Source of the DNA: Pseudomonadota bacterium
GTDB lineage: Bacteria; Bdellovibrionota; UBA1018
Length of the DNA: 64,000 nucleotides
NCBI GenBank assembly: GCA_027485695.1
Contig: JAIXQO010000004.1
Location: forward strand, 194,408 to 258,407
Direction: 5' to 3'
Both the position numbers and the translations under genes were made by a program. Of this stretch, positions 11,254 through 42,258 are shown in pieces (positions within the stretch are counted from its first letter, which is position 1; every line of letters begins with the position of its first letter). The notes beneath the pieces are model-generated. The model was not told the origin of the DNA. It was given only the letters and a program-made list of their open reading frames with translations, and did not search any database.

Positions 11254-11871
11254 TTATTGAAATGAGACTTCGCCGTTGTGGGTCGCAATGCGGACCACCG
11301 ACCAGCGATCGAGGCGCTCCGTCGCCAAGTCTTTGACGGGAGCGATAGCAAAAACGGTTGTTTCAAGACCATCTCCGCGACTCTGAAATCCGCGTTCTGG
11401 ATCATAACAAACTTCGGTAGAGACTTGTGGGATGCCGACTTGTTGGCCAATTGCCTGGGTCAAAACGACGAATCGCCGCCCACTGCGCGCACGAGCAACT
11501 AACCACTCCTTGAGAGGCTCACGTCCGACGGTCGAACGACAATCACGAATCGTCTCTGTTTTTATCCAGATCTCGTCCCCCCGCTTCTCCAGGATGATCA
11601 CTACGGGTGAGTGGCGGATAGAGCTCTCGAGGCGCACTTCCAGTACGGTCTCCGCGACTTTTCTTGCGATCCCCTCACCTAGCCACTTCGGGTACCGGTC
11701 TCGGACCGTGGGAACCGCGAGGATGGAAAGCGACAAAAAGAGAAAAAGCGCCAGAATCCAATTCTTTTTACGTTTGAATCGGACCTCGAGCTTTTCCCAA
11801 AGAACGAAGTTTCTCCACTCCGACTCTTTCCAACGATTTTCGGCTACATCAGATTCATGAAGGGGTGCCAT
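11254..11871 (-). CDS. hypothetical single-pass membrane protein between pilD and pilM
   Basis: 205 aa with one TM (WILALFLFLSLSILAV) and a periplasmic domain with no recognisable motifs. It overlaps the pilD 3' end by 28 nt. Confidence 0.4.
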   Translation of the reverse strand: MAPLHESDVAENRWKESEWRNFVLWEKLEVRFKRKKNWILALFLFLSLSILAVPTVRDRYPKWLGEGIARKVAETVLEVRLESSIRHSPVVIILEKRGDEIWIKTETIRDCRSTVGREPLKEWLVARARSGRRFVVLTQAIGQQVGIPQVSTEVCYDPERGFQSRGDGLETTVFAIAPVKDLATERLDRWSVVRIATHNGEVSFQ

Positions 11872-15381: not shown

Positions 15382-15489
15382 GCTAATTTATTTAAATTAT
15401 TACTAAACAAATAATTGAATTCCGAAACAACTGTTATAGAATATTAATTAGATCGACACTAATAATCCGTGATCGATTAAGAAGGACGT

Positions 15490-16158
15490 ATGAAGATGAA
15501 AACAATGACCAGCCTGCCACCAAAGCAATCTGCAACCTTGAAGAACAGACTTGGCTTCACTCTTGTCGAGTTGATGATCGTCGTCGCCATCATTGGTATC
15601 TTGGCTTCGATCGCGATTCCGAACTTTCAGAAATACCAAGCCCGGGCTCGTCAGCGTGAGGCGAATATCGCGCTGTCCGCCATCTATACTTCCCAAAAGG
15701 GATTTATCGCAGAATCGAACACCTATACGGCATGCTTGAGACAGGCCGGTTACGTTCCTGAAACTAACGGAGCTAACGTCAACGCCGTCAAACGCTACTA
15801 CGCTGTCGGATTCACGACTGCCGTCGTGGCAGCAGCAAGCACTTGTGGACCAACGGGCAACCAAGCATGCCTAGCCTACGACTACTCCGATGCAACGCCA
15901 GTGGCTTGTACCGGCGGTTCGAACGCAGGCTTCACGTCAGCGGTAACTACTGTGGACATCAACTACTCGGCTACGGCCAAAGCGTTTAGCGCTGCAACCG
16001 GTCCTACGATCGCAAGCAACGCGGCAACTCTCGTCATCGCTCAGAACTCGTTCATCGCCGGCGCTGCCGGGAACGTATCTTCGACCAGCTCGCTCTACGA
16101 CCAGTGGACGATCAACGAAGGTAAAATTCTGAAGAACACGACCAACGGTATCCAGTAA
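15490..16158 (+). CDS. pilA: type IVa major pilin
   Basis: The class III signal is ...KNRLG|FTLVELMIVVAIIGILASIAIPNFQKYQ, with Phe+1 and Glu+5. The C-terminal half is Ser/Thr/Ala-rich and carries Cys pairs. A Shine-Dalgarno sequence AAGGA lies upstream. The leader is 22 aa from the ATG at 15490, 20 aa from the ATG at 15496, and 6 aa (MKNRLG) if the in-frame TTG at 15547 is used. Confidence 0.9.
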   Translation: MKMKTMTSLPPKQSATLKNRLGFTLVELMIVVAIIGILASIAIPNFQKYQARARQREANIALSAIYTSQKGFIAESNTYTACLRQAGYVPETNGANVNAVKRYYAVGFTTAVVAAASTCGPTGNQACLAYDYSDATPVACTGGSNAGFTSAVTTVDINYSATAKAFSAATGPTIASNAATLVIAQNSFIAGAAGNVSSTSSLYDQWTINEGKILKNTTNGIQ

Positions 16159-16196
16159 GCCTGATCGATACTGCTTAGATCGTACAAAAGTATATA

Positions 16197-16231
16197 GCCC
16201 CCCAGTCTAGATTGGATTGGGGGGCTTTTTT
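16197..16231 (+). terminator. rho-independent terminator after pilA
   Basis: The stem gcccccca/tggggggc (8 bp, all G:C but one) with a 13-nt loop is followed by TTTTTT. Confidence 0.8.
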
Positions 16232-16246
16232 GTTCATAATCGTTTC

Positions 16247-17953
16247 ATGCTCTTATCGAAGGAAAAGAATTCGCCCTATAAGATCGCGCTATTCGCGGCA
16301 ATTCCGATCCTGACCTTGCTCTCCCAGGTGATCCCGCTGATTTCAGCAGATCCCCTCTTGGAATTCGACGACCTCATCCTTATTCGTTCCGTTCAATCCG
16401 AATCGGTCTTGTCGTACTTTCAAAAGCTTTTGTCGCTCAACGCGATCGACATTCAACCGGTCCGTGACCTCCTCATTTTGGGGGAAATCCGCTTCTCAAA
16501 AATTTTCTTTTCCCCGTTTCATCTCGTGAATGTTTTCCTCGTCGCGACCGCCTGCTTTTTTTGGTTTCGAATCACGAAGAAATGGGTGACCACCCAAGGA
16601 CATGCTTGGACCGCAATGACCTTGGCTCTCATTTGGGTCTTGAGTCATGGTGCCTGGGTATTTAGCTTGAGCTGGGTCGCCGCCCAGAAACACTGGCTCG
16701 CCCTCATCTTTTTGTTGTTGGCCATCGACTGCGCAAGACTCGAAACACATCAGCAGCAGCAGAGGCTCTCGGTTTCAAAGCTCTCGGTCTTCTTCGCTGT
16801 ACTGGGCATGCTTTCCCATCCGATTCTTTGCCTCGTGGGACTGCTCCCCTTCCTATTCTCTTGGTTCTCAAAGTCACGCCCCAAGCTAATCTCTCCGACA
16901 ACGACACTCGCATTGCTCTCACTTTTACTCCTCGGCCTGAACTACCACTACTATCAGTCGATCTATCCAGGCCTCGTTGGGTTCGCGAAGTTCCAACCTG
17001 CGTACGACTTCACATTCGTTTCGACCCTTCTGCTGCGATTCGGGCGATATTTCTTCAATCTGGTTTGCCCCGCATTCATTGCAGTCACCTACTCACCTGC
17101 CTCCTGGCAAAATATTGTCGGCATACCAATCGCCGTCGTGATGGGGTACGCACTCCTCAAGCTACTGCCCAGACTACAAGCATTGGTCGTCGGCGCACTC
17201 ATTTGTATTCCGTTTTTCGCGACGGCGCCCTTTCAGCAGGGTATATTCTTGTCCGATACTTATCTTTTGTTTCCAGTGGCGGTAGTGGGCTGGCTGTTGG
17301 CCCGCCTCGTAAATGAAGTTCCTCGTGCCGGATTCATCGCCGCCGTTTTGATCATCGTCAATCTAGCAACCTCATTCTCTATACCCGAGAGCTTCAAAAG
17401 CGATACCAACCTCTGGATACGCTCGTACCAAGTTGAACCGGATCACAACAGTTTGCTTTCAGTGATCTACGCACAACTTCAACGTGGGCTTCTGAATGAA
17501 GCGCGTTACAATTTGGAAATCGCACAAGAATGGATTCCCGAGAGCGCCCTTCTCAAAGACTACTGGTGCGACCTCCATCGACAAGACGTCCAGAAGCCAG
17601 CTCGAGAGCGCATTGAAAAACTGGAAACCCTGGTGAAATCCAGTGATTCCTACTCCTGCCGAGAGGCATTGATCATTTTGCTTCTCGCTGAAAAACGAGA
17701 CAAAGACGCGATCTCAATTGCAATGAACGTAGGTCGACTCAACGTCACAGACTCACGACACACGGCTGAGAATCTAAGCGCTCGCCTCTACATAGCCTGC
17801 ACAAACGAGAAGATCGAAAACTGCGAACTCATTAAAGAGCGGTGGGTTGACCTGAGCCGGAGAAGGATTCTCCCGTGGAACGAAGCCGTCTACCAAACTG
17901 CCCTTAAAAATATCACCGATGCCAAGATCCGCGACGCAATCAATCGAGAATAG
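16247..17953 (+). CDS. polytopic membrane protein with C-terminal TPR-like domain, paralog 1; GT-C-type glycosyltransferase or Wzy_C-like oligosaccharyltransferase (candidate pilin-modifying enzyme)
   Basis: ~11 TM segments. An early loop carries the DD motif LLEFDDLILIRS, and further conserved motifs are DIQPVRDLL, HLVN and HGAWVFSLSWVAAQKH. The C-terminal ~160 aa form helical repeats. The track start at 16217 is a TTG inside the terminator stem, so the ATG at 16247 is used. Confidence 0.5.
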   Translation: MLLSKEKNSPYKIALFAAIPILTLLSQVIPLISADPLLEFDDLILIRSVQSESVLSYFQKLLSLNAIDIQPVRDLLILGEIRFSKIFFSPFHLVNVFLVATACFFWFRITKKWVTTQGHAWTAMTLALIWVLSHGAWVFSLSWVAAQKHWLALIFLLLAIDCARLETHQQQQRLSVSKLSVFFAVLGMLSHPILCLVGLLPFLFSWFSKSRPKLISPTTTLALLSLLLLGLNYHYYQSIYPGLVGFAKFQPAYDFTFVSTLLLRFGRYFFNLVCPAFIAVTYSPASWQNIVGIPIAVVMGYALLKLLPRLQALVVGALICIPFFATAPFQQGIFLSDTYLLFPVAVVGWLLARLVNEVPRAGFIAAVLIIVNLATSFSIPESFKSDTNLWIRSYQVEPDHNSLLSVIYAQLQRGLLNEARYNLEIAQEWIPESALLKDYWCDLHRQDVQKPARERIEKLETLVKSSDSYSCREALIILLLAEKRDKDAISIAMNVGRLNVTDSRHTAENLSARLYIACTNEKIENCELIKERWVDLSRRRILPWNEAVYQTALKNITDAKIRDAINRE

Positions 17954-17956
17954 GCA

Positions 17957-19630
17957 ATGAACAATTATCTTAAAGCGAATATCGCACTGACTTTCGCTTC
18001 CGCTCTAATTTTCTTGGTCTGCTTCTGGCCGACGCTTCAATCGGACGTACTACTCGGCTACGACGATACGATCCTGATCCAACCTCTAAAAAATTTGTCG
18101 GCCCTCGACTATTGGAAGAACCTGATTGCGATGCGGATCTACGACGTTCAACCCATTCGCGACCTTCTTTTTATGGTCAATATCCGCCTCAGTGCACTCG
18201 GCTTACCTGCCTTTCACCTCGTCAACCTCTGCTTAGGCGTCGGAATTCTGGCGCTTAGTACACGGCTCATGAGTTTTTTCGCGTTCTCAAAGAGTTCAAT
18301 TTGCGCGGGATTAACATGGACGATCACTCACGGAGCTTGGGTTTGGAGCTTATCCTGGGTGTCCGCCCAGAAGCACCTGGGGGCGCTCTTCTGGTTGTTG
18401 GTCGCAGTATGGGTTTACGCGAGACGATCGTCGGAAAAACAGGAACTACGAGGCCGTGACTGGTGGATGATCGGGTTGGCCTATGCGCTCTCTTCGCTCT
18501 CCCATCCGATCTACTTACCTCTTGGACTCCTACCGCTCCTAGTCCGCCTCTTGAATCGCCGATCTATTCCTCAGTCATTCAAGCCAAGTGGATGGGTGGG
18601 TCCGCTCGCCCTTGCTGCAATCACGCTGACTTGCTTAGCGCTCAACGCCTACTACTACCTGAAAATCTACCCCTCCCAGAGCGAGGTCGCTAAATTTCTG
18701 TCACAGGAGAACACTATAGACGGACAACTCCTCCTTCAGGCTGGGAGGTACTTTTTCAATCTACTCTTACCGATCCAAGTCGCCGCACACTACTGGCCCG
18801 GATCCGCTGCCTCCTTGATCGGTATCCCTGTCGGCGTTGCGATGACCTGGACGCTCTTTAAGTTGGTCCCAAGAATGTGGGCGTCGATCGCATCGATGAT
18901 GATCGCACTACCTTTTCTGATGACCGCCCCGTTTCAAAAGAACGTATTTTTTTCAGATACCTACTTACTTCTCCCCGTACTGACGCTCTCAGTGCTTCTT
19001 ACCGCCTGCACTGAACGGTTTCCCCGATCGACTTGGGCGATTTGGATCATGAGCGCCGTGCAGCTCTATTTTTCCTATCCGATTCCTTCGAGTTTCACCT
19101 CCGACGAGGCACTCTGGACGAGATCCTACGAGGTGTCACCCAACCCCTCATCTCTCTTTGCACTGGTTTCCATACATCTCGAGCGAGGCAACCTGACTGA
19201 AGCCGGAACAAACCTCGATATCCTAGAGAAATGGATGCCAGAAAATCCACGCTATCCACGAAACCGTTGCATCTGGCTCAAAAAAACGGCTGATCGTGAT
19301 CCTTCTCGTCGTCTGCAAAACAAAAAATGGATGGAGGAACTCTACCGAACAAGCCAAGACTCCGTCTGTGCGCTTTTTCTCGTCGATTTGTACCAAGCGG
19401 AGGGAGCATGGTCACAGACCACCGATATTGCCTTGTCACTGACATCGCTCAACTCCGAAAATCAATGGGACGGCGAACGGCTCGCAGCAGGACTGACACA
19501 ATTATGCCAGCGCACGAATCGAACTGATTGCGCATCTGTGAGCGCCCATATTCGGTCACTCTGCACTCACCGGCCCAAGCCTTGGGACGAAAATGCCTAC
19601 CTCAAGAATTTAAGTGAGTTTCAAAAATAA
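17957..19630 (+). CDS. polytopic membrane protein with C-terminal TPR-like domain, paralog 2 of 16247..17953
   Basis: It shares collinear motifs with paralog 1: LLGYDDTILIQP, DVQPIRDLL, HLVN, HGAWVWSLSWVSAQKH, QAGRYFFNLLLP, SDTYLLLPV and WTRSYEVSPN. It starts 3 nt after the paralog 1 stop. Confidence 0.5.
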   Translation: MNNYLKANIALTFASALIFLVCFWPTLQSDVLLGYDDTILIQPLKNLSALDYWKNLIAMRIYDVQPIRDLLFMVNIRLSALGLPAFHLVNLCLGVGILALSTRLMSFFAFSKSSICAGLTWTITHGAWVWSLSWVSAQKHLGALFWLLVAVWVYARRSSEKQELRGRDWWMIGLAYALSSLSHPIYLPLGLLPLLVRLLNRRSIPQSFKPSGWVGPLALAAITLTCLALNAYYYLKIYPSQSEVAKFLSQENTIDGQLLLQAGRYFFNLLLPIQVAAHYWPGSAASLIGIPVGVAMTWTLFKLVPRMWASIASMMIALPFLMTAPFQKNVFFSDTYLLLPVLTLSVLLTACTERFPRSTWAIWIMSAVQLYFSYPIPSSFTSDEALWTRSYEVSPNPSSLFALVSIHLERGNLTEAGTNLDILEKWMPENPRYPRNRCIWLKKTADRDPSRRLQNKKWMEELYRTSQDSVCALFLVDLYQAEGAWSQTTDIALSLTSLNSENQWDGERLAAGLTQLCQRTNRTDCASVSAHIRSLCTHRPKPWDENAYLKNLSEFQK

Positions 19631-19697
19631 TCACGATCTCAAAAACTGATCTGATTTCCATTTCTTTCCAAACGGTTTCAACCGAAAATATAACGAT

Positions 19698-20690
19698 ATG
19701 CCCAACTGGCGGAAACCCACTGCACACCAGAATTTGGTTTTCATACTGATTTTTGCCCTGGGAGCCGCTTCCGGTGGTTCTTACACCTATTCTTTCTTTT
19801 CGCTTCAAAAAACCGAAGTCCGCAAGGTCTCTCCGCTTCTAGATCCAGCACTCGCCTACAGGAATTCTGGTGAATACCAACTTCCATTGGATTTCAGGCT
19901 CAAAGAAAGCGAGTCCTTGCTCCGCACGCGAATCCAACAGGAGATTGAGGACAACACGATTCAGGAAGCTTCGATTTACTATCGTAGCTTCAACAACGGA
20001 CCCTGGTTCGGCATCAACGAAGATGCAAGGTTCCTACCTGGCAGTCTCTTGAAACTCCCGCTGGCCATTGCACTATTCAAGCAATCGGAATCGGATCCAA
20101 ATCTCCTGGAACGACAGATTGCGTTCAATAACCCGGATTTACTTCCACTCTATAACTTGCAGTTCGCGGAACCCGCAGAACGCCTCGAGATCGGCCGTTC
20201 TTATAGCGTGAGGACACTGATTGAGCGCTCCCTCATATACTCTGATAACGTCGCTGCAAACTTACTTGAACGCACGCTCGGCGTGGAAGCCTGGGCTCGC
20301 CTCTCCAAGGATCTTTACGTTCCGATTGATCGCAACACCGCACACTCCCGGGGGCTCACGTCCAAGGAATACAGCACGTTCTTCCGCGTTCTTTACAACT
20401 CATCATACTTGAGCGAGACAAATTCAGAGTTTCTCCTCAATGTTTTGAGCAAATCCACGTTCATCGACGGGCTTCGAGCCATCGTTCCCGAAGGTACGAT
20501 TATCGCCCACAAATTCGGCGAGACCCTCTTCGGCGATAAAAAGAAGTTCGCCTACCTCAGTGATTGCGGGATTATCTACGGCAAGACCCAACCGCACATC
20601 GTTTGCGTTATGTTGCGTAGCGACTCTCGCAACAAAATGAATCGGGAGCTATTCATGCGATTATTCCGAGATCTTCCGATCATTTATTAA
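19698..20690 (+). CDS. membrane-anchored serine hydrolase with class A beta-lactamase / PBP-like fold
   Basis: N-terminal TM (LVFILIFALGAASGG). The active-site triad of motifs is S-x-x-K (PGSLLKLPLAIAL), SDN (LIYSDNVAANLL) and a K-x-G variant (AHKFGET). Confidence 0.5.
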   Translation: MPNWRKPTAHQNLVFILIFALGAASGGSYTYSFFSLQKTEVRKVSPLLDPALAYRNSGEYQLPLDFRLKESESLLRTRIQQEIEDNTIQEASIYYRSFNNGPWFGINEDARFLPGSLLKLPLAIALFKQSESDPNLLERQIAFNNPDLLPLYNLQFAEPAERLEIGRSYSVRTLIERSLIYSDNVAANLLERTLGVEAWARLSKDLYVPIDRNTAHSRGLTSKEYSTFFRVLYNSSYLSETNSEFLLNVLSKSTFIDGLRAIVPEGTIIAHKFGETLFGDKKKFAYLSDCGIIYGKTQPHIVCVMLRSDSRNKMNRELFMRLFRDLPIIY

Positions 20691-20747
20691 CCAAAGACCT
20701 CGCCTGCTGCCTCGACTCCGCAAGTCCATTCACCTTATTATAGAAAC

Positions 20748-23198
20748 ATGTTCACTCAGATCACTGTATTCGGTTGGGCTTGGGTTCTCTGGAAAACAAA
20801 CGGTTGGTACTCCCCGGGATACCTCTTCACGTTTCCGGCGCTCATCTTAACTGGGTATTGGGCGGATCGCAGATTCGGGGATCGCGTTCTCACGCCAAAG
20901 CAGAAAACGGTTTTCGCCCTCGCATTCTTCAGCCTCTTGGGAACGATTCGGCCTCAGCTTCTCTATCCTCAGTCATCCCTGTTTCTCGCCGCCATCCAAG
21001 CCGCATTCATCATGGTGCTGATCGTCGCCGCTTGGCTCGCCATACGCGACCAATGGAGGCACCAGCTCTCGATCTTACTATTTGCGGTGTCCGCTCTCGT
21101 CCTCGTTTTCGGAATCCTCTGCTCTCCCTATCCACTGATCGACGTATGGATCTACATTCAACAAGCGGTCGATGGAATTCAAAACGGGATCAATCCGTAC
21201 TCCATCGCTTTTCCGAGTGTCTACGCGGGCAAACCTCCTGCCGCTTTTCCGTATAGCCCAGTCACACTCCTGTATTTGACGCCTTTTCACGCAATACTCG
21301 GCGACGTTCGTTACGGCCTGGTCGCGGCATTGTTGATTTCGGGCCTACTCTGCCTAGGTACCAAATCGGACAAGTCTAGCAAGTACCTGTATACCAGCCT
21401 CATCCTGCTTTTCCCGTCGACTTTGAATGTCATTGAGCAAAGCTGGATCGATCCCATTAGCCTCATCCCTCTAGCGATGGCCATCCGGGGTCTCAAATCT
21501 AAGAAGAACTCCTGGTTCATCGCCGGAGTACTTTTACTCCCCGCAGTAAAACATTATAACTTCGCGTTCGTACCATTTCTGCTGCTCGCACATCCATCAT
21601 TCAGAAACTGGAAGAAAGCGCTCGCGCTCTTCGCAGGATCGGTGGCGTTCTTTGTTACTCAGTTTATTGCATTTACTCCGTCCAGCAAAACCTCGACTGG
21701 ATTCTTGAAGGAGATGCTATTCCCCACATTCGATCTTACAGAAATTCGCCACTTTTCACTCGGTGACTGGTTAATCGCCCATCAGATTCCCATTTCCGCC
21801 AACGAGGGACTCCTGATTTCTCTCCTCATTGGAGTCACATCCGTGGCCGTATTCATTTGGAAAAAGCGCCATTTACCCAGTGATTCAATCCTTTGGGGCA
21901 GCTATGCATTGATGGTTTTTTTCCTCCTCTATCCAAATACGGCGCTCAACTACGTTTGGTTCGCAGTCATCGCTTGGTGGATGAACGAGCTTTCTCGTCC
22001 CGAAGAAAGCACTGCGCCGCTCGTGAACGGTCTCGCCCCGATCGATGCTTTGTATTTCGTCACCCGCATCTTCCTGATCTTCGGTATGGAGCCCTATATT
22101 TCTGACGTGGGTCTCTATTTCAAATATTTTAGTGAGTGGCATTTCGGCGGACTCATGCCTTACCGAGACTTCTCGTTCGAATACCCACCTTTCGCATGGA
22201 TCCCGATCGTTTTTCCCGCTTCCTTGTTCTCGATCAACTCTGAGTCTCTTTTGGCCTATCGATTTTGTTTCATGAGTCTCATTGTTGCGGCTGATTTTTC
22301 CATTTTCCGATTCTTCAGACGGATCTCCGAACCCAAAGCTGCCTATTTCTACGTATTCTCAATCCTCGCTATGGCTCACCTCGTGCTCGATCGGATTGAT
22401 TTGATCGTCGGTTTTTTTCTGATTCTTCCTTTGTTCCCATTCGCGCGTACGAATCGATTTTTCTCCCAAGACATCATCATCGGCATGGGCGGGCTTTTTA
22501 AGATCTCCCCAATGATTGTGAGCGGGCTGCCGGAGCTTTTGAAAAAACGAGGCATCTTCCGAGCTACTCTCGGGGCGTTGGTCTCGGTCTCACTCTTCGT
22601 CATCGGCATGGCGTGGATGCTCGACTTCTCCGACGGCAAACCAACGTTATTCAACTATCACTCTCTTCGTGGCATCCAGGTCGAATCACTCATCGGAAAC
22701 GTCGCTCTTTTCCTCGCAACCATCTCGCCAGAATTGGGAATATCCGTTGGTAACAACTATGGAGCACAACATTTAAGCGGCTTTCCAGATTCGGTTGTTC
22801 TATTCGGAAAACTGCTTTCAATCGTTTCTGTTTTTGCGACTTTTGGGTGGGTCGTACGCAACGCGCTCGTGCATAAGAAGGTGGAACTGGCTCAGGCGAC
22901 TTTCCTCATGATTCTCACATTCGTGACCTTCAACACTGTATTGTCACCGCAATTCATCCTTTGGCTGATACCCGTCGGAATATTTGCAAGTATCGAACAG
23001 AAACGAAAATATGATCTCTATACGCTTTTTTTAATATCGGTGATCACCGGAGTCCATTTTCATTTCTACTGGAGCTACGTTCAAAAAGAGATCCCATTCC
23101 TCTTGAACCTGATGCTCCGTAATTTGCTACTCGTAGGACTCTGGGCAGTGAATATCTACCGGATCTCTCTAAACAAAGATAAATCGATGACTCGTTGA
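20748..23198 (+). CDS. 816-aa integral membrane protein (more than 20 predicted TM segments); possibly a duplicated GT-C/DUF2029-like mannosyltransferase-type module
   Basis: Hydrophobic almost throughout, with Trp/Tyr/Pro-rich loop motifs (WIYIQQAVDGIQNGINPYS, FNTVLSPQFILWLIP). The call is tentative. Confidence 0.4.
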   Translation: MFTQITVFGWAWVLWKTNGWYSPGYLFTFPALILTGYWADRRFGDRVLTPKQKTVFALAFFSLLGTIRPQLLYPQSSLFLAAIQAAFIMVLIVAAWLAIRDQWRHQLSILLFAVSALVLVFGILCSPYPLIDVWIYIQQAVDGIQNGINPYSIAFPSVYAGKPPAAFPYSPVTLLYLTPFHAILGDVRYGLVAALLISGLLCLGTKSDKSSKYLYTSLILLFPSTLNVIEQSWIDPISLIPLAMAIRGLKSKKNSWFIAGVLLLPAVKHYNFAFVPFLLLAHPSFRNWKKALALFAGSVAFFVTQFIAFTPSSKTSTGFLKEMLFPTFDLTEIRHFSLGDWLIAHQIPISANEGLLISLLIGVTSVAVFIWKKRHLPSDSILWGSYALMVFFLLYPNTALNYVWFAVIAWWMNELSRPEESTAPLVNGLAPIDALYFVTRIFLIFGMEPYISDVGLYFKYFSEWHFGGLMPYRDFSFEYPPFAWIPIVFPASLFSINSESLLAYRFCFMSLIVAADFSIFRFFRRISEPKAAYFYVFSILAMAHLVLDRIDLIVGFFLILPLFPFARTNRFFSQDIIIGMGGLFKISPMIVSGLPELLKKRGIFRATLGALVSVSLFVIGMAWMLDFSDGKPTLFNYHSLRGIQVESLIGNVALFLATISPELGISVGNNYGAQHLSGFPDSVVLFGKLLSIVSVFATFGWVVRNALVHKKVELAQATFLMILTFVTFNTVLSPQFILWLIPVGIFASIEQKRKYDLYTLFLISVITGVHFHFYWSYVQKEIPFLLNLMLRNLLLVGLWAVNIYRISLNKDKSMTR

Positions 23199-25129
23199 TC
23201 CTTGGCTTCGAATACAGTCATTGCCGGATGTGCAGAAATCCAAGAGTCGATCCAGTAGCTATAGTAGGTTCTCACGCCGATATACCGGTCATCCAAGAGG
23301 TATCGCACCTTCTCTGAGATTAACCGACGAATGATGACATCTGGGGACAACGACTCCAAGTCACCGACTGGTACGGGGTTTGAATCCAGCCAGGACTTAA
23401 CGGGCAATCCAGAGATGTAGTAGAGTTGATTGTCGCCGGTGGTGAGAATTTTTTCTCCCGGACGCACGTTCATCCTGAGCCAGGCCTTAGATGAACCGGC
23501 CCGAAAATCATCTCTTATTGCTAAATGCCAATCTGATATTTTTGAGTCTGTGAGCGCATGAAAAACAGGCGCGTCTCCATAGTTACCCGGTCGAATGGAG
23601 TCCCCGTAGGCGACCAGGGATAGAAATATACACGAAAGCACCGATACTTGAATTCTCGAACTGAGTGCTTGAATCAGAATGGATATTCCAATCACGGTTA
23701 ACCAACCGATCAAAGCTATCTCCGCTCCTAAGTGTCGGTCGGTCAGCCTGGCTTGTTGCAAGAGGAGTAATATGAATACGGCGACCAAAATCCCGGACAA
23801 CCCCATCCAAATACGTAGTGCTGGAGATTCTTTTTTCTTCCTCAGTATCACGCCAACTGCGACACCAATCAAAACCAGGAGAATCCAGCTCTCACTTGAT
23901 ATGATCGATGCTAGTCGTTCTAAACGTTGACTGAATTCCAATGAGTCTTTGGGCAAGTAGTAGCGGACTAGAGTCAACGCCCCATCTGTCATGCCTCGAC
24001 TGGGGAATAGATCGTCCATGATTGGAAAAATCGGATTCTGCGTGAAGATCACGTTTCTCACCGCCAGCGGAAGCGCAGCTAAGCCAAAAAAACCAATTGA
24101 TACTCCCCACTCTCGAACACTCGATTTTCGTATCCAGAGTGCTAACGCAACAATCGCAATCGCCAGTGGCCCATTAGTGAACTTAGAAACGCCCGCGACA
24201 CCGAGGATAAATGCGCCCACACGCGGTCTATCAAAAACCAAAGACAACCCGCCGACTAGGAAAAATAGAGACCCCCAGTCATTCTTGGCTAGGACAGTGA
24301 CCCATAATAGATCGCGGACTGAAATAGCGGCTAAAGCCGCAACCAGGGCAATGAGATCGTTTGCTTGGAACAGTCGTCTTGCTGCGTAGTAAGCGGCGAA
24401 ATAAGTTCCCATAAAACCTAAAACCGTGTGAAGCAGTTGTGCAAAAATCTGACCTTCGATCAGTCCGCGTCCAACTTCACCACTCAGCAGCCGCATGCCA
24501 AACAGGATGAGATACTCCCACTGTCCGGCATGAAAAATGACGATATCTCCTGGCGGAAGATATACCGAGCCATGATCCATCCAAAGTCTAGGAGCATAGA
24601 GGTGATAAATGAGAGGATCTGATGCCGCCCAGGGGCCTAGCGACTTAAACACTCGAAAAAGGAAAAAAACTGCCAAGTACAGAAGTATCCCTCGTTCGAT
24701 CCAAGACGCCAATTTCAGGGAACTAATGATTGGCCCGAGTTTTCTGGGTCGTACAAGTGCAGAGCCCATGCAAACACAGATCGCGAACAAGAGTCGAGAC
24801 TCTGGACCAATAGATCCAAAACCTAGGAACAATACAAAAAATGAGATGAAAGCCGCCCCCAAGATGAGGGAAACAAGCCAGTGTTCTTTGGCCACGCGAA
24901 ATAGAATCCGCGATAGACCGTCGCCCCACCCTACCAAGCTGAGTAGAAAAGTCGCAAAGACCGCAATGACCGATAGAATCGCAACAAAGTCGAGTTGGGC
25001 GTCCGGATTTCTCCCATCACCTAACACCAACCAACTCACCCAAAGAATGAATGAAGAACTGATCAGAGTGGGGAAATGAATCAATGAACCGCGAGAATCG
25101 TCAGTCCGAGCTAGATTCATCCTCGTCAC
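23156..25129 (-). CDS. 657-aa polytopic membrane protein with C-terminal periplasmic domain, ArnT/PMT-like (GT-C) glycosyltransferase candidate
   Basis: ~12-13 TM helices are followed by a ~130-aa soluble C-terminal domain. The gene converges on 20748..23198 with a 43-nt overlap, and its start overlaps the sigma54 activator stop by 29 nt. Confidence 0.4.
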   Translation of the reverse strand: MTRMNLARTDDSRGSLIHFPTLISSSFILWVSWLVLGDGRNPDAQLDFVAILSVIAVFATFLLSLVGWGDGLSRILFRVAKEHWLVSLILGAAFISFFVLFLGFGSIGPESRLLFAICVCMGSALVRPRKLGPIISSLKLASWIERGILLYLAVFFLFRVFKSLGPWAASDPLIYHLYAPRLWMDHGSVYLPPGDIVIFHAGQWEYLILFGMRLLSGEVGRGLIEGQIFAQLLHTVLGFMGTYFAAYYAARRLFQANDLIALVAALAAISVRDLLWVTVLAKNDWGSLFFLVGGLSLVFDRPRVGAFILGVAGVSKFTNGPLAIAIVALALWIRKSSVREWGVSIGFFGLAALPLAVRNVIFTQNPIFPIMDDLFPSRGMTDGALTLVRYYLPKDSLEFSQRLERLASIISSESWILLVLIGVAVGVILRKKKESPALRIWMGLSGILVAVFILLLLQQARLTDRHLGAEIALIGWLTVIGISILIQALSSRIQVSVLSCIFLSLVAYGDSIRPGNYGDAPVFHALTDSKISDWHLAIRDDFRAGSSKAWLRMNVRPGEKILTTGDNQLYYISGLPVKSWLDSNPVPVGDLESLSPDVIIRRLISEKVRYLLDDRYIGVRTYYSYWIDSWISAHPAMTVFEAKDQRVIDLSLFREIR

Positions 25130-26195
25130 CCATCCCTAACTTGGCTAGACGGTAGCGAATACTACGAAACGTGATTCCGAGAACTTCTGCGGCGCGCTTC
25201 TTGACGCCTCCAGTATGCTCCAGAGCTTTTTCGATATATTGCTTCTCGACAGCTGCGAGAATCGCATCAAGTTCGATCGGTCCCTTCGTGAAGTCCGGTG
25301 CGGGCAGCTCAATCGCACTCAAAGGTGGCGCGCCTGGTGCTCGCGGATGTGAGTCGCGAAAAACTTTCTCGACCTCATCAGTTCTAGACTGCTGAGACGA
25401 AGAGGAAGTGGATTGAGCGCTCGTTGCCTTCGCGGAAATGATCGCTTGCGGCAGACTCGACAATTCAATCAACGTTTTTGATTCTAAGGTAACCGCACGC
25501 TCGATCACGTTCTCGAGTTCCCGAATGTTACCGGGCCATCCGTAACGAGTCATCGCCTCCATCGCATCGTCGGAGAAAGCTTGGATTTCTTTGCCCTGAC
25601 GCTCACCAAATCGCTTCAGAAATTCATTGGCAAGCATCGGAATGTCACTGCCCCGCTCACGCAGAGGCGGAGTTCGAATCAAGATGACGTTTAGTCTGTA
25701 ATATAGATCTTCGCGGAATCTGCCTTCACGAATCATCAACTCGAGGTCACGGTTCGTAGCGGAGATGATCCGAACATCCACCTTGAGATCGTCGTTTGCG
25801 CCCACCCGGCGTACCACCCGCTCTTGCAACGCACGAAGAAGCTTGACCTGCATGGAGAGAGGCAACTCGCCGACTTCGTCCAGGAATAGCGTTCCGCCAT
25901 TTGCGGCCTCAAATAGTCCAGGCTTGTCCGAAACGGCTCCTGTGAAGCTACCCTTCTTATGCCCGAACATTTCGCTCTCGATTAGGTTCTCCGGAATAGC
26001 GCCACAGTTTACGGGAATGAAAGGTTTGCCTTTCATCGGTCCCGTGTCGTGAATCATTCGAGCAACGAGTTCTTTGCCGGTGCCGCTCTCACCGATGATC
26101 AATACGTTCGTTTTGTTACCAGACACCTTGGAAATCAGGGAGATCAGGCTCTTGACCGGCGCAGAATCCCCCAGAATTTTGCGACTCTTCTCCAC
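25101..26195 (-). CDS. sigma-54-dependent transcriptional activator lacking a receiver or sensor domain (PilR-like AAA+ plus Fis-type HTH only)
   Basis: Walker A GESGTGKE, GSFTGA (a GAFTGA variant), the EDLYYRLNV R-finger region, and a C-terminal HTH (KRAAEVLGITFRSIRYRLAKLG) after a Ser/Gln-rich linker. The ORF is bounded upstream by the pilC stop, so there is no room for a REC domain. Confidence 0.85.
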   Translation of the reverse strand: MEKSRKILGDSAPVKSLISLISKVSGNKTNVLIIGESGTGKELVARMIHDTGPMKGKPFIPVNCGAIPENLIESEMFGHKKGSFTGAVSDKPGLFEAANGGTLFLDEVGELPLSMQVKLLRALQERVVRRVGANDDLKVDVRIISATNRDLELMIREGRFREDLYYRLNVILIRTPPLRERGSDIPMLANEFLKRFGERQGKEIQAFSDDAMEAMTRYGWPGNIRELENVIERAVTLESKTLIELSSLPQAIISAKATSAQSTSSSSQQSRTDEVEKVFRDSHPRAPGAPPLSAIELPAPDFTKGPIELDAILAAVEKQYIEKALEHTGGVKKRAAEVLGITFRSIRYRLAKLGMGDEDESSSD

Positions 26196-27406
26196 TATTG
26201 AATCCCCTCGCCCATTTTGAAGATCGGAAGGTACATAGCAATCATGAGGCCGCCTACCGTGCCACCCAAGAATACGAGGATGACTGGTTCGATCAGCTTA
26301 GTGAGGCCGTTCACAAGAATTTCAACTTCGGCTTCATAGAAATCGGCGACTTTCTCTAACATTCGGTCCAGCTGACCCGTGCTCTCGCCGACGGCCATCA
26401 TCTGAACGGCCATTTTTGGAAACACGTCGATTTGGCCGAATACGTATGCGAGGCTCTTACCTTGCTCAATTTCCGGTCGAAGAATCGAAACCGCATCTTC
26501 TAAGACTGCGTTGTCGATCGTCTGTTTGCAGATGTCGATCGCATCGAGCAAGTTCACCCCGGAATTCAAAAGCGTCGCCAGCGTCCGAGTAAAACGGGCA
26601 GTACCGCCTTTTTGCATAATCGGTCCAAAGATCGGTACTTTGAAAAACATTTTGTCCCGCAAGACGCGCCCTTCGGGACTCTGAAAGAATTTGGTCAGGA
26701 CGAAAGCCGCGAACGCTATCGCGCCAATCAAGACCGTGAAGTGATCTCGGATAAAATGGGAGACATCGATCACGAACTGGGTCGGAGCCGGGAGAGCTTG
26801 GCCGTTTTGAGAAAGAAGTTCTTCGAACTTCGGGATGACGAACGTCAGCATACCGATGATCACCGCGACACCGACGCTGACCACGATCACCGGATACATC
26901 ATGGCCGATTTCAGTAATTTTTTCAGGCGGTCGGCGTCTTCGAGATAGTTGGTGAGGCGCCGCAAGATCGCATCCAGAGCACCTGAACTCTCGCCGGCTC
27001 GGACGAGCGCAAGATAGAGCTTCGGAAATGCCTTTGGGTAAGCACTCATGGCCTCCCAGAGAAATGTCCCTTCGCTGACTTTTTGCTTAATGCCCATACA
27101 AAGAGTCTTAAACGCGCCGGATCCCCCTTGATCCGTCAGAATGTCGAGCGCTTGAGTCAGCGGAATACCGGAACCGATGAGTACCTGCATCTGTCGCGTG
27201 AAAATGAGAACTTCTTCTGCGGAAACGTTGGTAGATTTAAATACTTCTCCCAAATCTTTTTGGGCAAGGCTCTGAACAGAAACCTTCAGCGGACGGACGC
27301 CTTGACCACGCAATAAGATCCTCAACTCCCCTTCGGAAGCTGCCGTGACCTTACCTTTGACGCGGTTTCCTTGGCGATCGACGCCATCATACATGTAATC
27401 CGGCAT
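26195..27406 (-). CDS. pilC: type IV pilus inner-membrane platform protein PilC (GspF family)
   Basis: 403 aa with two GspF-like repeats and 3 TM segments. It lies between pilT and the activator. Confidence 0.9.
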   Translation of the reverse strand: MPDYMYDGVDRQGNRVKGKVTAASEGELRILLRGQGVRPLKVSVQSLAQKDLGEVFKSTNVSAEEVLIFTRQMQVLIGSGIPLTQALDILTDQGGSGAFKTLCMGIKQKVSEGTFLWEAMSAYPKAFPKLYLALVRAGESSGALDAILRRLTNYLEDADRLKKLLKSAMMYPVIVVSVGVAVIIGMLTFVIPKFEELLSQNGQALPAPTQFVIDVSHFIRDHFTVLIGAIAFAAFVLTKFFQSPEGRVLRDKMFFKVPIFGPIMQKGGTARFTRTLATLLNSGVNLLDAIDICKQTIDNAVLEDAVSILRPEIEQGKSLAYVFGQIDVFPKMAVQMMAVGESTGQLDRMLEKVADFYEAEVEILVNGLTKLIEPVILVFLGGTVGGLMIAMYLPIFKMGEGIQ

Positions 27407-27423: not shown

Positions 27424-28497
27424 TCACTTCAGATTCTGAAGCATACGCATCAGCTCTTCGGGCATATAACTATATTCCATCGCGGCTTCGGGAGAAATGG
27501 TGCCGGACTTCACGTATCCGATCAACGCCTGATTGAGCGTCTGCATTCCTGTTTCGCCTTGGCCTGTTTGCATGGCGGAATAGATTTGGTGAATTTTCTC
27601 TTCGCGAATGAGGTTTCGAATGGCCATGCTCGGCACCAGAACTTCGCAGGCCATTGCTCGGCCGCGTCCACCGATCTTCGGCACCAGGCACTGAGAGACG
27701 ATCGCCTGCAACGTAAAACTCAGCAACTGACGGACCTGCCCTTGTTGGTGAGGCGGAAACACGTTGATCACGCGGTTGACGGATTGAATCGCGCTGTTGG
27801 TGTGAAGCGTGCCGAAAACCAAGTGACCGGTTTCGGCCATAGTCAGCGCCATCTCGATCGTATCCAAATCCCGAAGCTCTCCGACCAGAATATAGTCCGG
27901 GTCTTGGCGAAGAATTTGTCGAAGCGCGTTCTTAAAACTCTTGGTATCTACGCCCACTTCACGCTGGTTCACCACGCAGTTTTTGTGTGGGTGGACGAAT
28001 TCGATCGGGTCCTCGATCGTGATAATATGTCCAAACTCGTCCCGATTGAGCGCATCGAGCATCGCGGCGAGCGTCGTCGACTTACCACTACCCGTCGGGC
28101 CAGTGACCAGCACTAACCCGTTCGGTCGCTTGATCACTTCTTTCAAAATATTGGGAACGCCGATCTCATTCCACTCTGGAATCTTGACCGGAATTCGACG
28201 GAAAACTGCGGCAACACTACCGCGCTGGAGAAATATGTTACCCCGGAAACGAGCGACGTCCTTAATCCCGAACGAAAAATCGAGTTCCAGGTTCCGTTCG
28301 AACTCCGCTTTCTGAGAATCCGTTAAAACCTGATAGCACAGCTCCTTGGTATCTTGCGGAGTCAGTGCATCGGTTTTGACCTTAACCATGTTCCCGGAGA
28401 TACGGAACTCAGGCGGTACGCCGACCGTAACGTGCAAGTCGGACGCGTTCTGGTCGACCATGGTTTTCAAAAGTGCTGGAAGACTGATCTTCGCCAT
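27424..28497 (-). CDS. pilT: twitching motility retraction ATPase PilT
   Basis: 357 aa with Walker A GPTGSGKST, Asp and His boxes, and a PilT-type length with no N-terminal GSPII domain. Confidence 0.9.
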   Translation of the reverse strand: MAKISLPALLKTMVDQNASDLHVTVGVPPEFRISGNMVKVKTDALTPQDTKELCYQVLTDSQKAEFERNLELDFSFGIKDVARFRGNIFLQRGSVAAVFRRIPVKIPEWNEIGVPNILKEVIKRPNGLVLVTGPTGSGKSTTLAAMLDALNRDEFGHIITIEDPIEFVHPHKNCVVNQREVGVDTKSFKNALRQILRQDPDYILVGELRDLDTIEMALTMAETGHLVFGTLHTNSAIQSVNRVINVFPPHQQGQVRQLLSFTLQAIVSQCLVPKIGGRGRAMACEVLVPSMAIRNLIREEKIHQIYSAMQTGQGETGMQTLNQALIGYVKSGTISPEAAMEYSYMPEELMRMLQNLK

Positions 28498-28503
28498 TTC
28501 TCG

Positions 28504-30225
28504 TTACTCCATTGTCATCGAAATTGCTTCTTGAAGGCTTGTATGTCCCTCGATCACTTTCGTAATCGCGGATTGCCGGAGCGACTTCATACCATTGGCG
28601 ACTGCAGCCCTGCGAATTTCGATGATCGTTTGACCTCGAAGCACCATTTCTTTTAACTCTTGCGTAAAATCAAATACCTCGTAAATCGCGAGACGGCCCT
28701 TGTAACCGGTGTTCGCACATGCTGGACAACCCTTGCCCACAAACATTTTAACTGCTCCCAGCTGTTCTGGTGGCACGCCGAGTTCCTTTAGTTTCTCTAG
28801 TGGGGCTGGCTGTTCTATCCGGCAACGTCCGCAGATTTTGCGAAGCAATCGCTGAGCTACGATGGTGTTAACCGAAGAGGTCACCAGAAATGGCTCGACT
28901 CCCATATTCATCAAACGCGTAATTGAGCTTGGAGCATCGTTCGTGTGCAATGTGGACAAAACCAAGTGACCCGTGAGCGCGGCCTGAATCGAAACTTCGG
29001 CGGTTTCATAGTCACGAATCTCACCCACCAGAATGATATCCGGGTCTTGGCGAAGAAGGGATCTGAGAACGGACGCGAAGTTCATTCCAACGTCTTTGTT
29101 GATCTGAGTCTGATTGATCCCTTCCAAGTTATATTCGACCGGGTCTTCGGCGGTTGAAATGTTGTCCGCAGTCTTATTGAGATCCGCGAGCGCGGAATAC
29201 AGCGTAGTGGTCTTACCGCTACCGGTCGGTCCAGTGACGAGCACCATTCCGTTTGGAGAATAAATTCCTTTTTTAAAGACCTCGAGCTGCTGAGTCTCGA
29301 ACCCAAGTTTGGTGAGGTCGAGATTTAGGCTGCCCTGACTCAAAATACGCATCACAACTTTTTCACCGAATAGAGTCGGGAGCGAGTTCACCCGGAAGTC
29401 GACGGTCTGTCCGCCGACCTTGATTTTGATACGGCCGTCTTGTGGAATTCGGCTTTCGGAGATATCCATCCGGGACATGATTTTGAGACGTGCGACGACA
29501 GTACGTTTCAGTTCCGGTGGAACTTCGGCGATCTCGTGCAATGCACCGTCTACCCGCATGCGAACGCGGAATCGGCGTTCATAGGGCTCTACGTGAATAT
29601 CGGAAGCACCCCGACGAACCGCTTCACCCAAAATACCGTTTACGAAGTTAACGACTGCCTCGCCCGTCGTATCTCCAGCTCCCCCGCTGTCGAGGGAGAC
29701 GTCGACGTCATGGACATCGAAACTACTGAGTCCGATCGATTTATTCGCTTCGTTCTTGAGTTCGTCCCGCTGAAGTACGTTCAGGGAACTCGCGATCACG
29801 GCGGACGCACTGAAATATTTGCTCAGCGCTTCTTCAAACGCACTAAAAGTTGTAACGACTGCTTCGATGTTTTTCTTCGTGACGAACTTGACCTTGTCGG
29901 CCATCGCCAGTCTAGTCGGATCGCAAACGGCAACGACGATCACATCATTTTTAGACTGAATAGGAATCAACTGGAGATCGCGCACTATGTCCGTAGGAAT
30001 GAGCGAGATGACTTTTTGATCGAGCGTGAATTTTGAGAGGTTGATGCTCGCCAGATTGAATCGCCGACTGAGGTATTCGACGAGCTTCGCCTCGCTCATT
30101 TTTTTTGTTTGAACGAGCACCTTGACCGGACTACCGTTCGGACCTGCGTCCGCCACCGCTTGGTCGAACTGGCCTTGTGAAATTTTGTTGTCCCGAAGGA
30201 GTATTTCTGCGAGCTGCCTAGACAT
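28504..30225 (-). CDS. pilB: type IV pilus assembly (extension) ATPase PilB (GspE family)
   Basis: 573 aa with an N-terminal GSPII domain, Walker A GPTGSGKTT and the tetra-Cys zinc site (CGRC...CPAC). Confidence 0.9.
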   Translation of the reverse strand: MSRQLAEILLRDNKISQGQFDQAVADAGPNGSPVKVLVQTKKMSEAKLVEYLSRRFNLASINLSKFTLDQKVISLIPTDIVRDLQLIPIQSKNDVIVVAVCDPTRLAMADKVKFVTKKNIEAVVTTFSAFEEALSKYFSASAVIASSLNVLQRDELKNEANKSIGLSSFDVHDVDVSLDSGGAGDTTGEAVVNFVNGILGEAVRRGASDIHVEPYERRFRVRMRVDGALHEIAEVPPELKRTVVARLKIMSRMDISESRIPQDGRIKIKVGGQTVDFRVNSLPTLFGEKVVMRILSQGSLNLDLTKLGFETQQLEVFKKGIYSPNGMVLVTGPTGSGKTTTLYSALADLNKTADNISTAEDPVEYNLEGINQTQINKDVGMNFASVLRSLLRQDPDIILVGEIRDYETAEVSIQAALTGHLVLSTLHTNDAPSSITRLMNMGVEPFLVTSSVNTIVAQRLLRKICGRCRIEQPAPLEKLKELGVPPEQLGAVKMFVGKGCPACANTGYKGRLAIYEVFDFTQELKEMVLRGQTIIEIRRAAVANGMKSLRQSAITKVIEGHTSLQEAISMTME

Positions 30226-38543: not shown

Positions 38544-39508
38544 ACGAAACGAGAGAACAGAATTTCAAGGAGAAGGAAACCAAGTGCTAAGACGGCGACG
38601 AGCTGAAACCGCTCGTCGTAGCGAATTTTTTCTTTGACCTTGAGTTCCGATTTCTCCAAGTGATTGATCTCGGAAAAAACTTCATCGAGCGTTTTCTCAT
38701 CCTGAACCCGATAGAATTTACCGTTGGTCGCAGCCGAGATTTGCTGAAGCAGTTCCGTGTTGAGTGCGTTGTCGAACCACTGATAGTTCGTGACCACGTC
38801 GCCGGTAAAAGTCTTGCGGCGGATCGGGAGTTTCACCCGCCCCTCACGACCAATTGCGATCGTATAGACCTTGATGCCGAAACCCGCTGCAAGGTCTCCT
38901 GCCGTCAATGGATCCACTTGGCCGATGTTGCTGTCTCCGTCCGTGAGCAAAATAATGACTCGACTCTTGGCCGTCGAATTTCTCAAGCGATTCACGCCGA
39001 GCGCGAGGCCATCACCAATCGCGGTACCGTCTTTCAGTACGCCCGTCTCTACCTTGCGAAGCTCCTGAAGAACGAGGCCATAGTCGAGGGTCGGAGGAGA
39101 AAGAGTGAGTGGCTCCCCGCTAAATACGACGAACCCGATGCGATCGTTGTCGCGGCCCCGGATGAAATCTTCCATCGTTCGTTTTGCGATATCGAGTCGT
39201 GGTTTTTCACCGAGATCTTCGATGTTCATGGAAGCTGAAACGTCCATAATCATCAGAATGTCGATACCACTCGTCTGCCGCTCGGTTTCCCGGGAACTCG
39301 ATTGCGGACGTGCGGCTGCTACCACCAGTAGAACCACCGCAACGACTCGTAGAATCTGGAGCACCAAAGGTACAAAACCGCTCTGCATATCGACGGGGAT
39401 CGACTTGCCGGTGTAAACGCGCGACTCCACTTGGCGTTTCTTCGACCAAAACCAAAGCCACGCAAGCGGGATCAGAATCAGGAGTACCCAAGGATCCGCG
39501 AGTCTCAT
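38525..39508 (-). CDS. batA: BatA-like vWA-domain membrane protein
   Basis: Two N-terminal TMs, a vWA domain with MIDAS (DVSASMNIEDL), and a C-terminal TM. Confidence 0.75.
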   Translation of the reverse strand: MRLADPWVLLILIPLAWLWFWSKKRQVESRVYTGKSIPVDMQSGFVPLVLQILRVVAVVLLVVAAARPQSSSRETERQTSGIDILMIMDVSASMNIEDLGEKPRLDIAKRTMEDFIRGRDNDRIGFVVFSGEPLTLSPPTLDYGLVLQELRKVETGVLKDGTAIGDGLALGVNRLRNSTAKSRVIILLTDGDSNIGQVDPLTAGDLAAGFGIKVYTIAIGREGRVKLPIRRKTFTGDVVTNYQWFDNALNTELLQQISAATNGKFYRVQDEKTLDEVFSEINHLEKSELKVKEKIRYDERFQLVAVLALGFLLLEILFSRFVWRVVA

Positions 39509-41215: not shown

Positions 41216-41229
41216 TGATCTCCTCGACC

Positions 41230-42246: not shown

Positions 42247-42258
42247 CTCTCAGGGTCG

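Follow-up and report, generated by a model that had tools for sequence, protein, structure and literature searches.

What are five genes for membrane proteins doing between the type IV pilin gene pilA and the pilus motor genes of a bacterium of the Bdellovibrionota? The question is raised by a block at positions 16247-25129 of a 64,000-nucleotide (nt) stretch of contig JAIXQO010000004.1, referred to here as the window, and the five genes are designated M1, M2, Bla, M4 and M5. The sequence-only reading of the stretch took them for a single inserted cargo that glycosylates the pilin with the use of lipid-linked sugars. In the present analysis the gene layout, the fold and motif of M1 and M2, the relations of their family and its recurrent linkage to pilA were computed directly, and open reading frames (ORFs) between 5994 and 46080 were scanned against Pfam for context. 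The best explanation appears to be a TfpW-type pilin accessory cassette to which more membrane glycosyltransferase modules have been added, and this explanation is considered to have about an even chance of being right. Its central element, glycosylation of the pilin by M1 and M2, is well supported by analogy.

M1 and M2 had been recognized as tandem paralogues with tetratricopeptide repeat (TPR) tails, and this is confirmed: the two proteins are 35% identical (E 1e-95) and a PDB profile search with their family returns TPR proteins only. An orthologue of M1 (P0003) is 51% identical to it. A word-indexed search of 5.8 billion proteins found M1, M2 and one metagenomic fragment only, and HMMER with an M1/M2 profile collected 736 representative clusters at E <= 0.001, with 137 of them reaching E <= 1e-30; almost every one is 500-590 aa long. 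No Pfam or NCBIfam model covers this family. In an alignment of 62 members (A2, with M1 and M2 included), D36, R68, D69, K139, P184, Y234, D334 and Y336 are invariant, while D37, H140 and two cysteines of the tail are each kept in 90% or more of the members; the two cysteines fit an oxidising periplasmic location. The membrane part matches no Pfam family in any of the 62 proteins, and TPR families alone match the tail.

The structural prediction places these proteins among known enzymes. A first AlphaFold2 model of M2, from a three-sequence alignment, was discarded at a predicted local distance difference test (pLDDT) score of 55. The model that was retained has a pLDDT of 92.3 and shows a polytopic membrane domain with the fold of the C-type glycosyltransferases (GT-C), D36 and D37 standing directly after the first helix; a conserved acidic motif in the first extracytoplasmic loop, a mark of GT-C enzymes, is present in the M1/M2 family. 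The tabulated figures of the structural comparison are 19.0 for ALG12, 18.0 for Pmt4, 17.2 for ALG3, 16.7 for AglB, 16.5 for STT3B, 16.4 for Pmt2, 15.0 for ArnT, 14.9 for AftB, 14.5 for PglB, 14.4 for PIG-M and 12.2 for PimE, so the structural check proposed in the sequence-only reading yielded a GT-C fold with ArnT and Pmt4 among the matches. Profile alignment by hhalign joins the M1/M2 family, with the membrane domain within the alignment, to a bacterial protein named protein O-mannosyl-transferase by the Joint Genome Institute (JGI), with a probability of 99% and an E value of 3.7e-18, the name being an automatic annotation. The Pfam models PMT, PMT_2 and DUF1736 match neither M1, M2, M4 and M5 at E values up to 10 nor any of the 62 family members, and Wzy_C, the model of the TfpO/PglL type, has no match in any of the five proteins. 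The profile check suggested by the sequence-only reading was thus negative for PMT_2, Wzy_C and DUF1736, and for GT87 it gave matches to homologues of the C-terminal half of M4, not to M4 itself. It is concluded from the structure model that M1 and M2 are putative GT-C glycosyltransferases with TPR tails, in a branch that has no curated model.

The connection of this family with the pilus comes from its genomic position. A survey of genomes gave 38 family loci, all 38 from Myxococcota or Bdellovibrionota. Mapping of the Pil proteins of the window onto these loci places the family gene, in about nine of them (L006, L012, L014, L019, L022, L025, L027, L038 and L039), a few kb or less from pilA, pilGHI or pilBTC, a proportion with P ~4e-11 under a generous null. 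The distance to pilA is less than 100 nt in L014, L022, L027 and L038, as it is in the window; L027 carries a family copy on either side of pilA, and in L025 a more distant relative is found 17 nt from a second pilin gene. The order pilA, strong terminator, family gene is repeated in L027 and L038. Among 136 immediate neighbour genes the top Pfam families are ABC_tran (pilH type), N_methyl (pilins), T2SSF and PilZ, with no other recurring theme, and a rough tree shows pil-linked members on all branches of the family. The recurrence of a GT-C family with TPR tails beside pilin genes suggests that the pili are probably sugar-coated. The synteny with pilA that had been proposed as a check exists for the M1/M2 family and not for the remainder of the block: the conserved core is pilA with a gene of the GT-C and TPR type, and M4, M5 and Bla are lineage-specific. 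As a separate observation, the Bacteriovoracaceae metagenome-assembled genome (MAG) CANFNL01 (L018 8181-11578; L014; L023) carries four or more genes of the M1/M2 family, including a tandem pair distant from pilus genes and a gene between pilH and pilA.

Several known systems invite comparison. TfpW, found in Pseudomonas aeruginosa group IV strains Pa5196 and PA7, is a D-arabinofuranosyltransferase. The eukaryotic TMTC1-4 and PMT proteins are protein O-mannosyltransferases of the GT-C class that use dolichyl-phosphate-mannose (Dol-P-Man) donors, the TMTC proteins having TPR tails, while TfpO/PilO and PglL are Wzy_C O-oligosaccharyltransferases that transfer glycans en bloc from undecaprenyl-diphosphate. 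TfpW is described as a GT-C protein of 646 aa that has 11 transmembrane (TM) segments, bears a DDX motif in periplasmic loop 1 and exposes its TPR domain to the periplasm; tfpW lies directly after pilA, and without TfpW the glycosylation of pilin is lost (10.1101/2020.04.19.049825). Judged by this description, M1 and M2 are likewise polytopic GT-C-type proteins with Asp-Asp in the first periplasmic loop and a C-terminal TPR, and M1 is directly 3' of pilA with a terminator between them. The TfpW-type features found here are about 11 TM segments, the DDX motif of loop 1, the C-terminal TPR and the gene order pilA, terminator, accessory gene; cassettes of this sort are known to have a Rho-independent terminator that separates the pilin gene from its accessory gene (PMC11841053). 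The locus differs from that of tfpW in the tandem arrangement of M1 and M2, in the absence of a tfpX-like partner and in the added GT87-like and beta-lactamase-fold genes, and the M1/M2 family is distributed in Myxococcota and Bdellovibrionota whereas TfpW is found in Gammaproteobacteria. No genes of the D-arabinofuranose pathway (DprE1/DprE2-like) were found among the scanned ORFs. With TMTC and PMT proteins, M1 and M2 share an acidic pair in loop 1 and an extracytoplasmic TPR tail, but not, throughout the 62 members, a match to the PMT, PMT_2 or DUF1736 models. TfpO/PilO and PglL are also pilin-glycosylating membrane enzymes, and tfpO also directly follows pilA, but TfpO and PglL have another fold and mechanism, and Wzy_C is absent from all five proteins. 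The earlier comparison of the genes 3' of pilA to those for TfpO and TfpW therefore holds for the architecture of TfpW and fails for enzymes of the TfpO type.

M4 brings a second kind of glycosyltransferase-like protein to the block. Its C-terminal half, from about residue 431, has homologues in P0007 (E 1.6e-16) and P0014 (E 1.5e-8). Against the GT87 model PF09594 (cut-off 25) these two proteins score 41 and 39 bits, respectively, and P0007 matches PIG-M as well; M4 itself has no direct match to PF09594. The C-terminal half and the GT87-matching homologues have the motifs PYRDF-EYPP, RGIQVES and SPQ-W-P in common, and a PDB profile search with this half gave a marginal match to GPI mannosyltransferase 1 (E 0.05). 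By homology the C-terminal module is a predicted GT87-related protein, a relative of transferases of the polyprenyl-phosphate-mannose type. It resembles GT87, PimE and PIG-M in its homology to PF09594 members and in the loop motif PY-x-D-F-x-x-E-Y-P-P, and differs from them in that M4 scores under the Pfam model and is an 816-aa fusion of two modules. Known GT87 enzymes act on lipoglycans, not on proteins. The relatives of the N-terminal half are proteins of about 460 aa that belong to no Pfam family, at least one of them labelled actinomycete, and its motif order is GT87-like; a PDB profile search with this half returned nothing, and the two halves align weakly with each other (hhalign E 0.003, probability 10%). 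A metagenome scan with M4 found a single distant relative of the N-terminal half, in three samples, which adjoins two GT2 genes and two sugar epimerase/dehydratase genes. A metagenomic JGI protein of 1191 aa (P0011) combines a GT87-like N-terminus of the M4 C-terminal type with a GT-C and TPR module like that of M1 and M2 (residues ~499-1092) and with an extended series of TPRs, a fusion which suggests that the two types of module share one pathway. The convergent pair of M4 and M5 is kept in one close metagenomic relative, with identities of 62% and 37-51%. A part for M4 in pilin glycosylation, as a glycan-extending enzyme, is plausible.

The transcriptional layout (Table 1) corrects the picture of a single inserted cargo. 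The block is made up of two convergent units, pilA-terminator-M1-M2-Bla-M4 and pilB-pilT-pilC-activator-M5, and recent horizontal insertion is rejected since the GC content of the block (0.47-0.52) is that of the flanks. The other claims of the sequence-only reading about the layout are upheld: the five ORFs are real and have the stated coordinates, with hydrophobic segments in all five products and many in M1, M2, M4 and M5; family scans agree with a pilin gene on one flank and genes for a sigma-54 activator, PilC, PilT and PilB on the other; and the terminator after pilA is strong, its stem occupying 16196-16226 and its T run extending to 16234, with the start of M1 13 nt beyond. On the plus strand the gaps between M1 and M2, M2 and Bla, and Bla and M4 are 3, 67 and 57 nt, and on the minus strand the activator gene, pilC, pilT and pilB are packed with gaps of 17 nt or less. 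M5, which had been called convergent, is so with respect to M4, the 3' ends of the two genes overlapping by 43 nt on opposite strands, but is co-oriented with the activator operon, its start overlapping the 3' end of the activator gene by 20-29 nt. No sigma-54 consensus was found upstream of pilA with two or fewer mismatches.

Table 1. Genes, modules and signals at the pilA locus (positions in the window)
Feature	Position	Strand	Basis
Sigma-70-like promoter candidate (TTGAAT-16-TAGAAT) upstream of pilA	15415..15442	+	consensus scan
pilA, major type IV pilin	15490..16158	+	PF07963 N_methyl 4e-8; NF041775
Rho-independent terminator, pilA/M1 interval	16196..16234	+	14-pair stem, 8 G-C pairs, T run
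M1, putative GT-C with C-terminal TPR, 568 aa	16247..17953	+	paralogue of M2; alignment A2 row
M2, putative GT-C with C-terminal TPR, 557 aa	17957..19630	+	D36 invariant and D37 nearly so, both in first loop
Bla, class-A beta-lactamase/penicillin-binding-protein (PBP)-fold serine enzyme, 330 aa	19698..20690	+	PF13354 1e-30
M4, two-module fusion, 816 aa	20748..23198	+	ORF; homology of C-terminal module to GT87
M4 N-terminal module, polytopic	20748..22040	+	GT87-like motif order D132, NPY151, FPY169-P171, K268
M4 C-terminal module, GT87/PIG-M-like GT-C	22041..23198	+	PYRD474F-EYPP motif; homologues P0007, P0014
M5, polytopic membrane protein, 654-657 aa	23156..25129	-	ORF; weak LIC_10190 match
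Sigma-54 enhancer-binding protein without receiver domain ('pilR-like')	25101..26195	-	PF00158 and HTH_8
pilC	26195-27406	-	T2SSF 5e-63
pilT	27424-28497	-	pilT_fam 490 bits, above cut-off
pilB	28504-30225	-	type_IV_pilB 687 bits, above cut-off

In the mechanism proposed here, the donor, the acceptor (the pilin), the order of the steps and the roles of Bla and M5 are what we infer. Transcription of pilA would be driven by its own promoter, and the strong terminator would let a small fraction of the transcripts pass into M1-M2-Bla-M4. M1 and M2 would be located in the inner membrane with the Asp-Asp loop and the TPR tail in the periplasm, where the tail would bind the globular part of the membrane-anchored pilin and the GT-C domain would glycosylate Ser/Thr residues of the pilin, with a polyprenyl-phosphate-sugar as the donor, before pilus assembly. 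The two GT87-like modules of M4 may add further sugars, most likely of the mannose type, from the same class of donor. Bla, anchored on the periplasmic face, would edit an acyl or peptide substituent, or would have a separate role, and M5, co-expressed with the pilus motor genes, would be a further membrane component. If confirmed, this mechanism would extend pilin glycosylation of the TfpW type well past the Gammaproteobacteria and would have a bearing on phage resistance, prey recognition and the surface properties of predatory bacteria; Bdellovibrio-like predators enter their prey by means of type IV pili, and myxobacteria use them for social motility. What the locus offers is a candidate family, with GT-C and TPR parts, covered by neither Pfam nor NCBIfam and found repeatedly beside pilA, to which the double GT87-like protein, Bla and M5 are rare lineage-specific additions.

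A number of points weigh against this explanation. The link between the cassette proteins and the pilin is computational throughout, and the survey took one genome per species and one peptide pattern from the family alignment and met mostly MAG contigs. At 29 of the 38 family loci a pilus gene is absent from the surrounding 10 kb, and four or more family copies occur in some genomes, so that the family may have wider targets, and M4, M5 and Bla are absent from all 38, which puts them outside the conserved core. In Bdellovibrio bacteriovorus HD100 the gene after pilA is pilG, with no GT-C gene, and the cryo-electron microscopy paper on the Myxococcus xanthus pilus, as far as its modification-related terms show, does not report pilin glycosylation; literature searches found pilin glycosylation undescribed for Bdellovibrio or Myxococcus. 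No genes for a polyprenyl-phosphate-sugar synthase, a flippase or nucleotide-sugar synthesis occur in the cassette or among the scanned ORFs, and the fold of M5 is not established by profile searches. Of the O-glycosylation from lipid-linked sugars that had been proposed, the putative transferases M1, M2 and M4 are in place, and no donor genes were found among the scanned ORFs.

The loci distant from pilus genes and the several paralogues per genome are also what would be expected if M1 and M2 were general periplasmic protein O-glycosyltransferases (PMT/TMTC-like), or if the block modified lipopolysaccharide (LPS), lipid A or exopolysaccharide, its pil position reflecting co-regulation or chance. 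This is the strongest of the alternatives, although it is itself considered doubtful. Pmt4, Pmt2 and the lipid A-modifying ArnT are included among the closest structural matches of M2, and in B. bacteriovorus lipid A the phosphate is replaced by mannose (Schwudke 2003, as cited in PMC2233673), which, as far as that citation goes, implies periplasmic mannosylation of the GT-C type in this group. Pilus genes are, however, the only recurring neighbours of the family, and its terminator-coupled place after pilA is seen in three genomes. Moreover, all five cassette proteins and the activator form singleton clusters among ~15 billion sequences, a rarity of M4, M5 and Bla that is hard to fit with a core lipid A function; lipid A mannosylation by M4 and M5 was judged unlikely since their genes are nearly unique.

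A bolder form of the glycosylation hypothesis was also considered, and it is thought unlikely. The block and M5 would together constitute a complete periplasmic assembly line of GT-C modules alone (M1, M2, both halves of M4 and possibly M5), in which polyprenyl-phosphate monosaccharides are used one after another to grow an oligosaccharide on the pilin. Neither a cytoplasmic glycosyltransferase nor en bloc transfer would take part, and Bla would trim or acylate the glycan. Were it true, the lumenal ALG/PMT logic would have a bacterial counterpart that acts on a pilus, and the pili of predatory Myxococcota and Bdellovibrionota would commonly be glycosylated by an undescribed family.

How far Bla and M5 belong to the TfpW-type cassette depends on their own sequences. 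Bla had been described as a membrane-anchored protein of the class-A beta-lactamase fold, and it does match PF13354 at 1e-30 and has a single hydrophobic segment, residues 13-31, as N-terminal anchor. Aligned to TEM-1 and 6v4w, it keeps the SxxK and SDN motifs that class A beta-lactamases and PBP-fold esterases share with it, whereas KFG replaces KTG, Asn occupies the position of Glu166, and its score against NCBIfam bla_class_A is 78.7 bits, far under the cut-off of 200; the membrane anchor is a further difference from class A beta-lactamases. In fold, then, Bla agrees with the class, and in catalytic motifs and NCBIfam score it does not. With KFG in place of KTG and no aligned Glu166, Bla is probably no true beta-lactamase. 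More probably it is a serine protein that forms an acyl-enzyme on a different substrate, and any role assigned to it in the cassette is a guess.

M5 has 657 aa if read from a GTG start; the database protein P0017 begins with the ATG at 25120 and has 654 aa. M5 contains roughly twelve hydrophobic segments and ends in a soluble domain of ~150 aa. The sequence-only reading had called it ArnT/PMT-like, for which neither Pfam, the PDB profile search nor hhalign gives support: it has no Pfam match, the PDB profile search is empty, and hhalign probabilities of 5% against the M1/M2 profile and 0.2% against a GT87-like profile are not significant. A match to NCBIfam LIC_10190 is weak (E 2.4e-6, 26.6 bits, cut-off 100). 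Neither a metagenome pattern scan nor tblastn against plasmids found a relative, and the sole distant homologue is P0018, with 35% identity. The neighbours of P0018 are two canonical genes of the GT-C and TPR type, two methyltransferase genes, a GT2-methyltransferase fusion and a fragment that shares 76% identity with the C-terminus of the window activator. Through this context, and through its position at the end of the tightly packed pilB-pilT-pilC-activator operon, M5 is connected with glycan chemistry as well as with pili. The activator itself has an AAA+ domain (PF00158) from residue 7 and a C-terminal HTH_8 domain, with no receiver (REC) domain and no pilS-like kinase gene adjoining.

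The metagenomic locus L004 (597-7356) deserves mention beside M5. Next to two divergent canonical GT-C and TPR genes (motifs YDD and HP...E.V) it has two methyltransferase genes, a methyltransferase-GT2 fusion, a homologue of M5 and an activator-like fragment. It resembles a more complete cluster of this kind, in which a candidate donor synthase is present. GT2 and methyltransferase genes of this kind were found neither in the window nor at the surveyed loci.

These features of Bla, M4 and M5 also bear on whether the locus contains one functional unit at all. M1 and M2 could be pilin accessory proteins while Bla, M4 and M5 are unrelated lineage-specific envelope genes filling the gap of two convergent pil operons, as might be argued from the failure to find Bla, M4 or M5 beside the M1/M2 family elsewhere, from the position of M5 on the opposite strand in a different operon and from a promoter-like site (20712-20741) that precedes M4. 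This is regarded as quite unlikely: the M1-M2-Bla-M4 gaps are short, the M4/M5 pair is conserved in a relative, P0011 joins the two types of module, and the M5 homologue again adjoins GT-C and TPR genes. That M1 and M2 are merely TPR scaffolds or chaperones for pilin or secretin (as PilF, PilW, Tgl and TfpY), with the GT-C domain a membrane anchor, has a precedent in pilin accessory proteins of the TfpY type, which assist assembly and do not modify pilin (PMC11841053), and is nevertheless very improbable, the invariance of D36, R68-D69, K139 and D334 in 62 diverse members and the near invariance of D37 and H140 arguing for retained catalysis, while the similarity to PilF/PilW is no better than to any TPR protein.

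The pilin of the proposed TfpW-type cassette is a 222-aa prepilin with the cleavage motif G/FTLVE and a mature length of ~200 aa. Its best NCBIfam match is NF041775, the Myxococcus-type PilA (2.6e-26, under the model cut-off), and its size is typical for the Myxococcota and Bdellovibrionota (PMC11046646), phyla whose large pilins have been studied structurally. The Ser/Thr richness called striking in the sequence-only reading is not distinctive, since the 22% in the globular part equals that of pilins of related genomes, and it was rejected as a signal of glycosylation. The leader from the first ATG to the G/F site has 22 residues (15490-15555), long for a type IVa pilin. The exact 222-aa PilA is absent from the protein collection, which suggests that the deposited annotation probably starts at a later codon.

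On the other side of pilA the minus strand carries pilQ, pilP, pilO, pilN, pilM, a 205-aa ORF, pilD, pilI/pilH-like genes that encode an ABC-2 permease and an ABC ATPase and, at the place of pilG, a 305-aa ORF. The best matches of the Pil proteins of the window are in Bdellovibrionales and Bacteriovoracaceae MAGs. The whole pilus set (pilQPONM, pilD, the pilIHG-like ABC system, pilA, pilC, pilT and pilB) is contained within 24 kb (5994-30225) in a Myxococcus-like order, with the pilA-to-M4 segment inverted relative to the remaining pilus cluster. The 205-aa ORF in the pilM/pilD interval (11254-11871, minus strand) belongs to no Pfam family and has a counterpart, 36% identical, at the same position in a Bacteriovoracaceae MAG (L038 3035-3619). 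Further along the window, at 34774-46080 on the minus strand, is a Bat/MoxR-type operon with genes for a MoxR AAA protein, a DUF58 protein, VWA proteins and BatD, followed by a 1273-aa ORF of no Pfam family (42259-46080).

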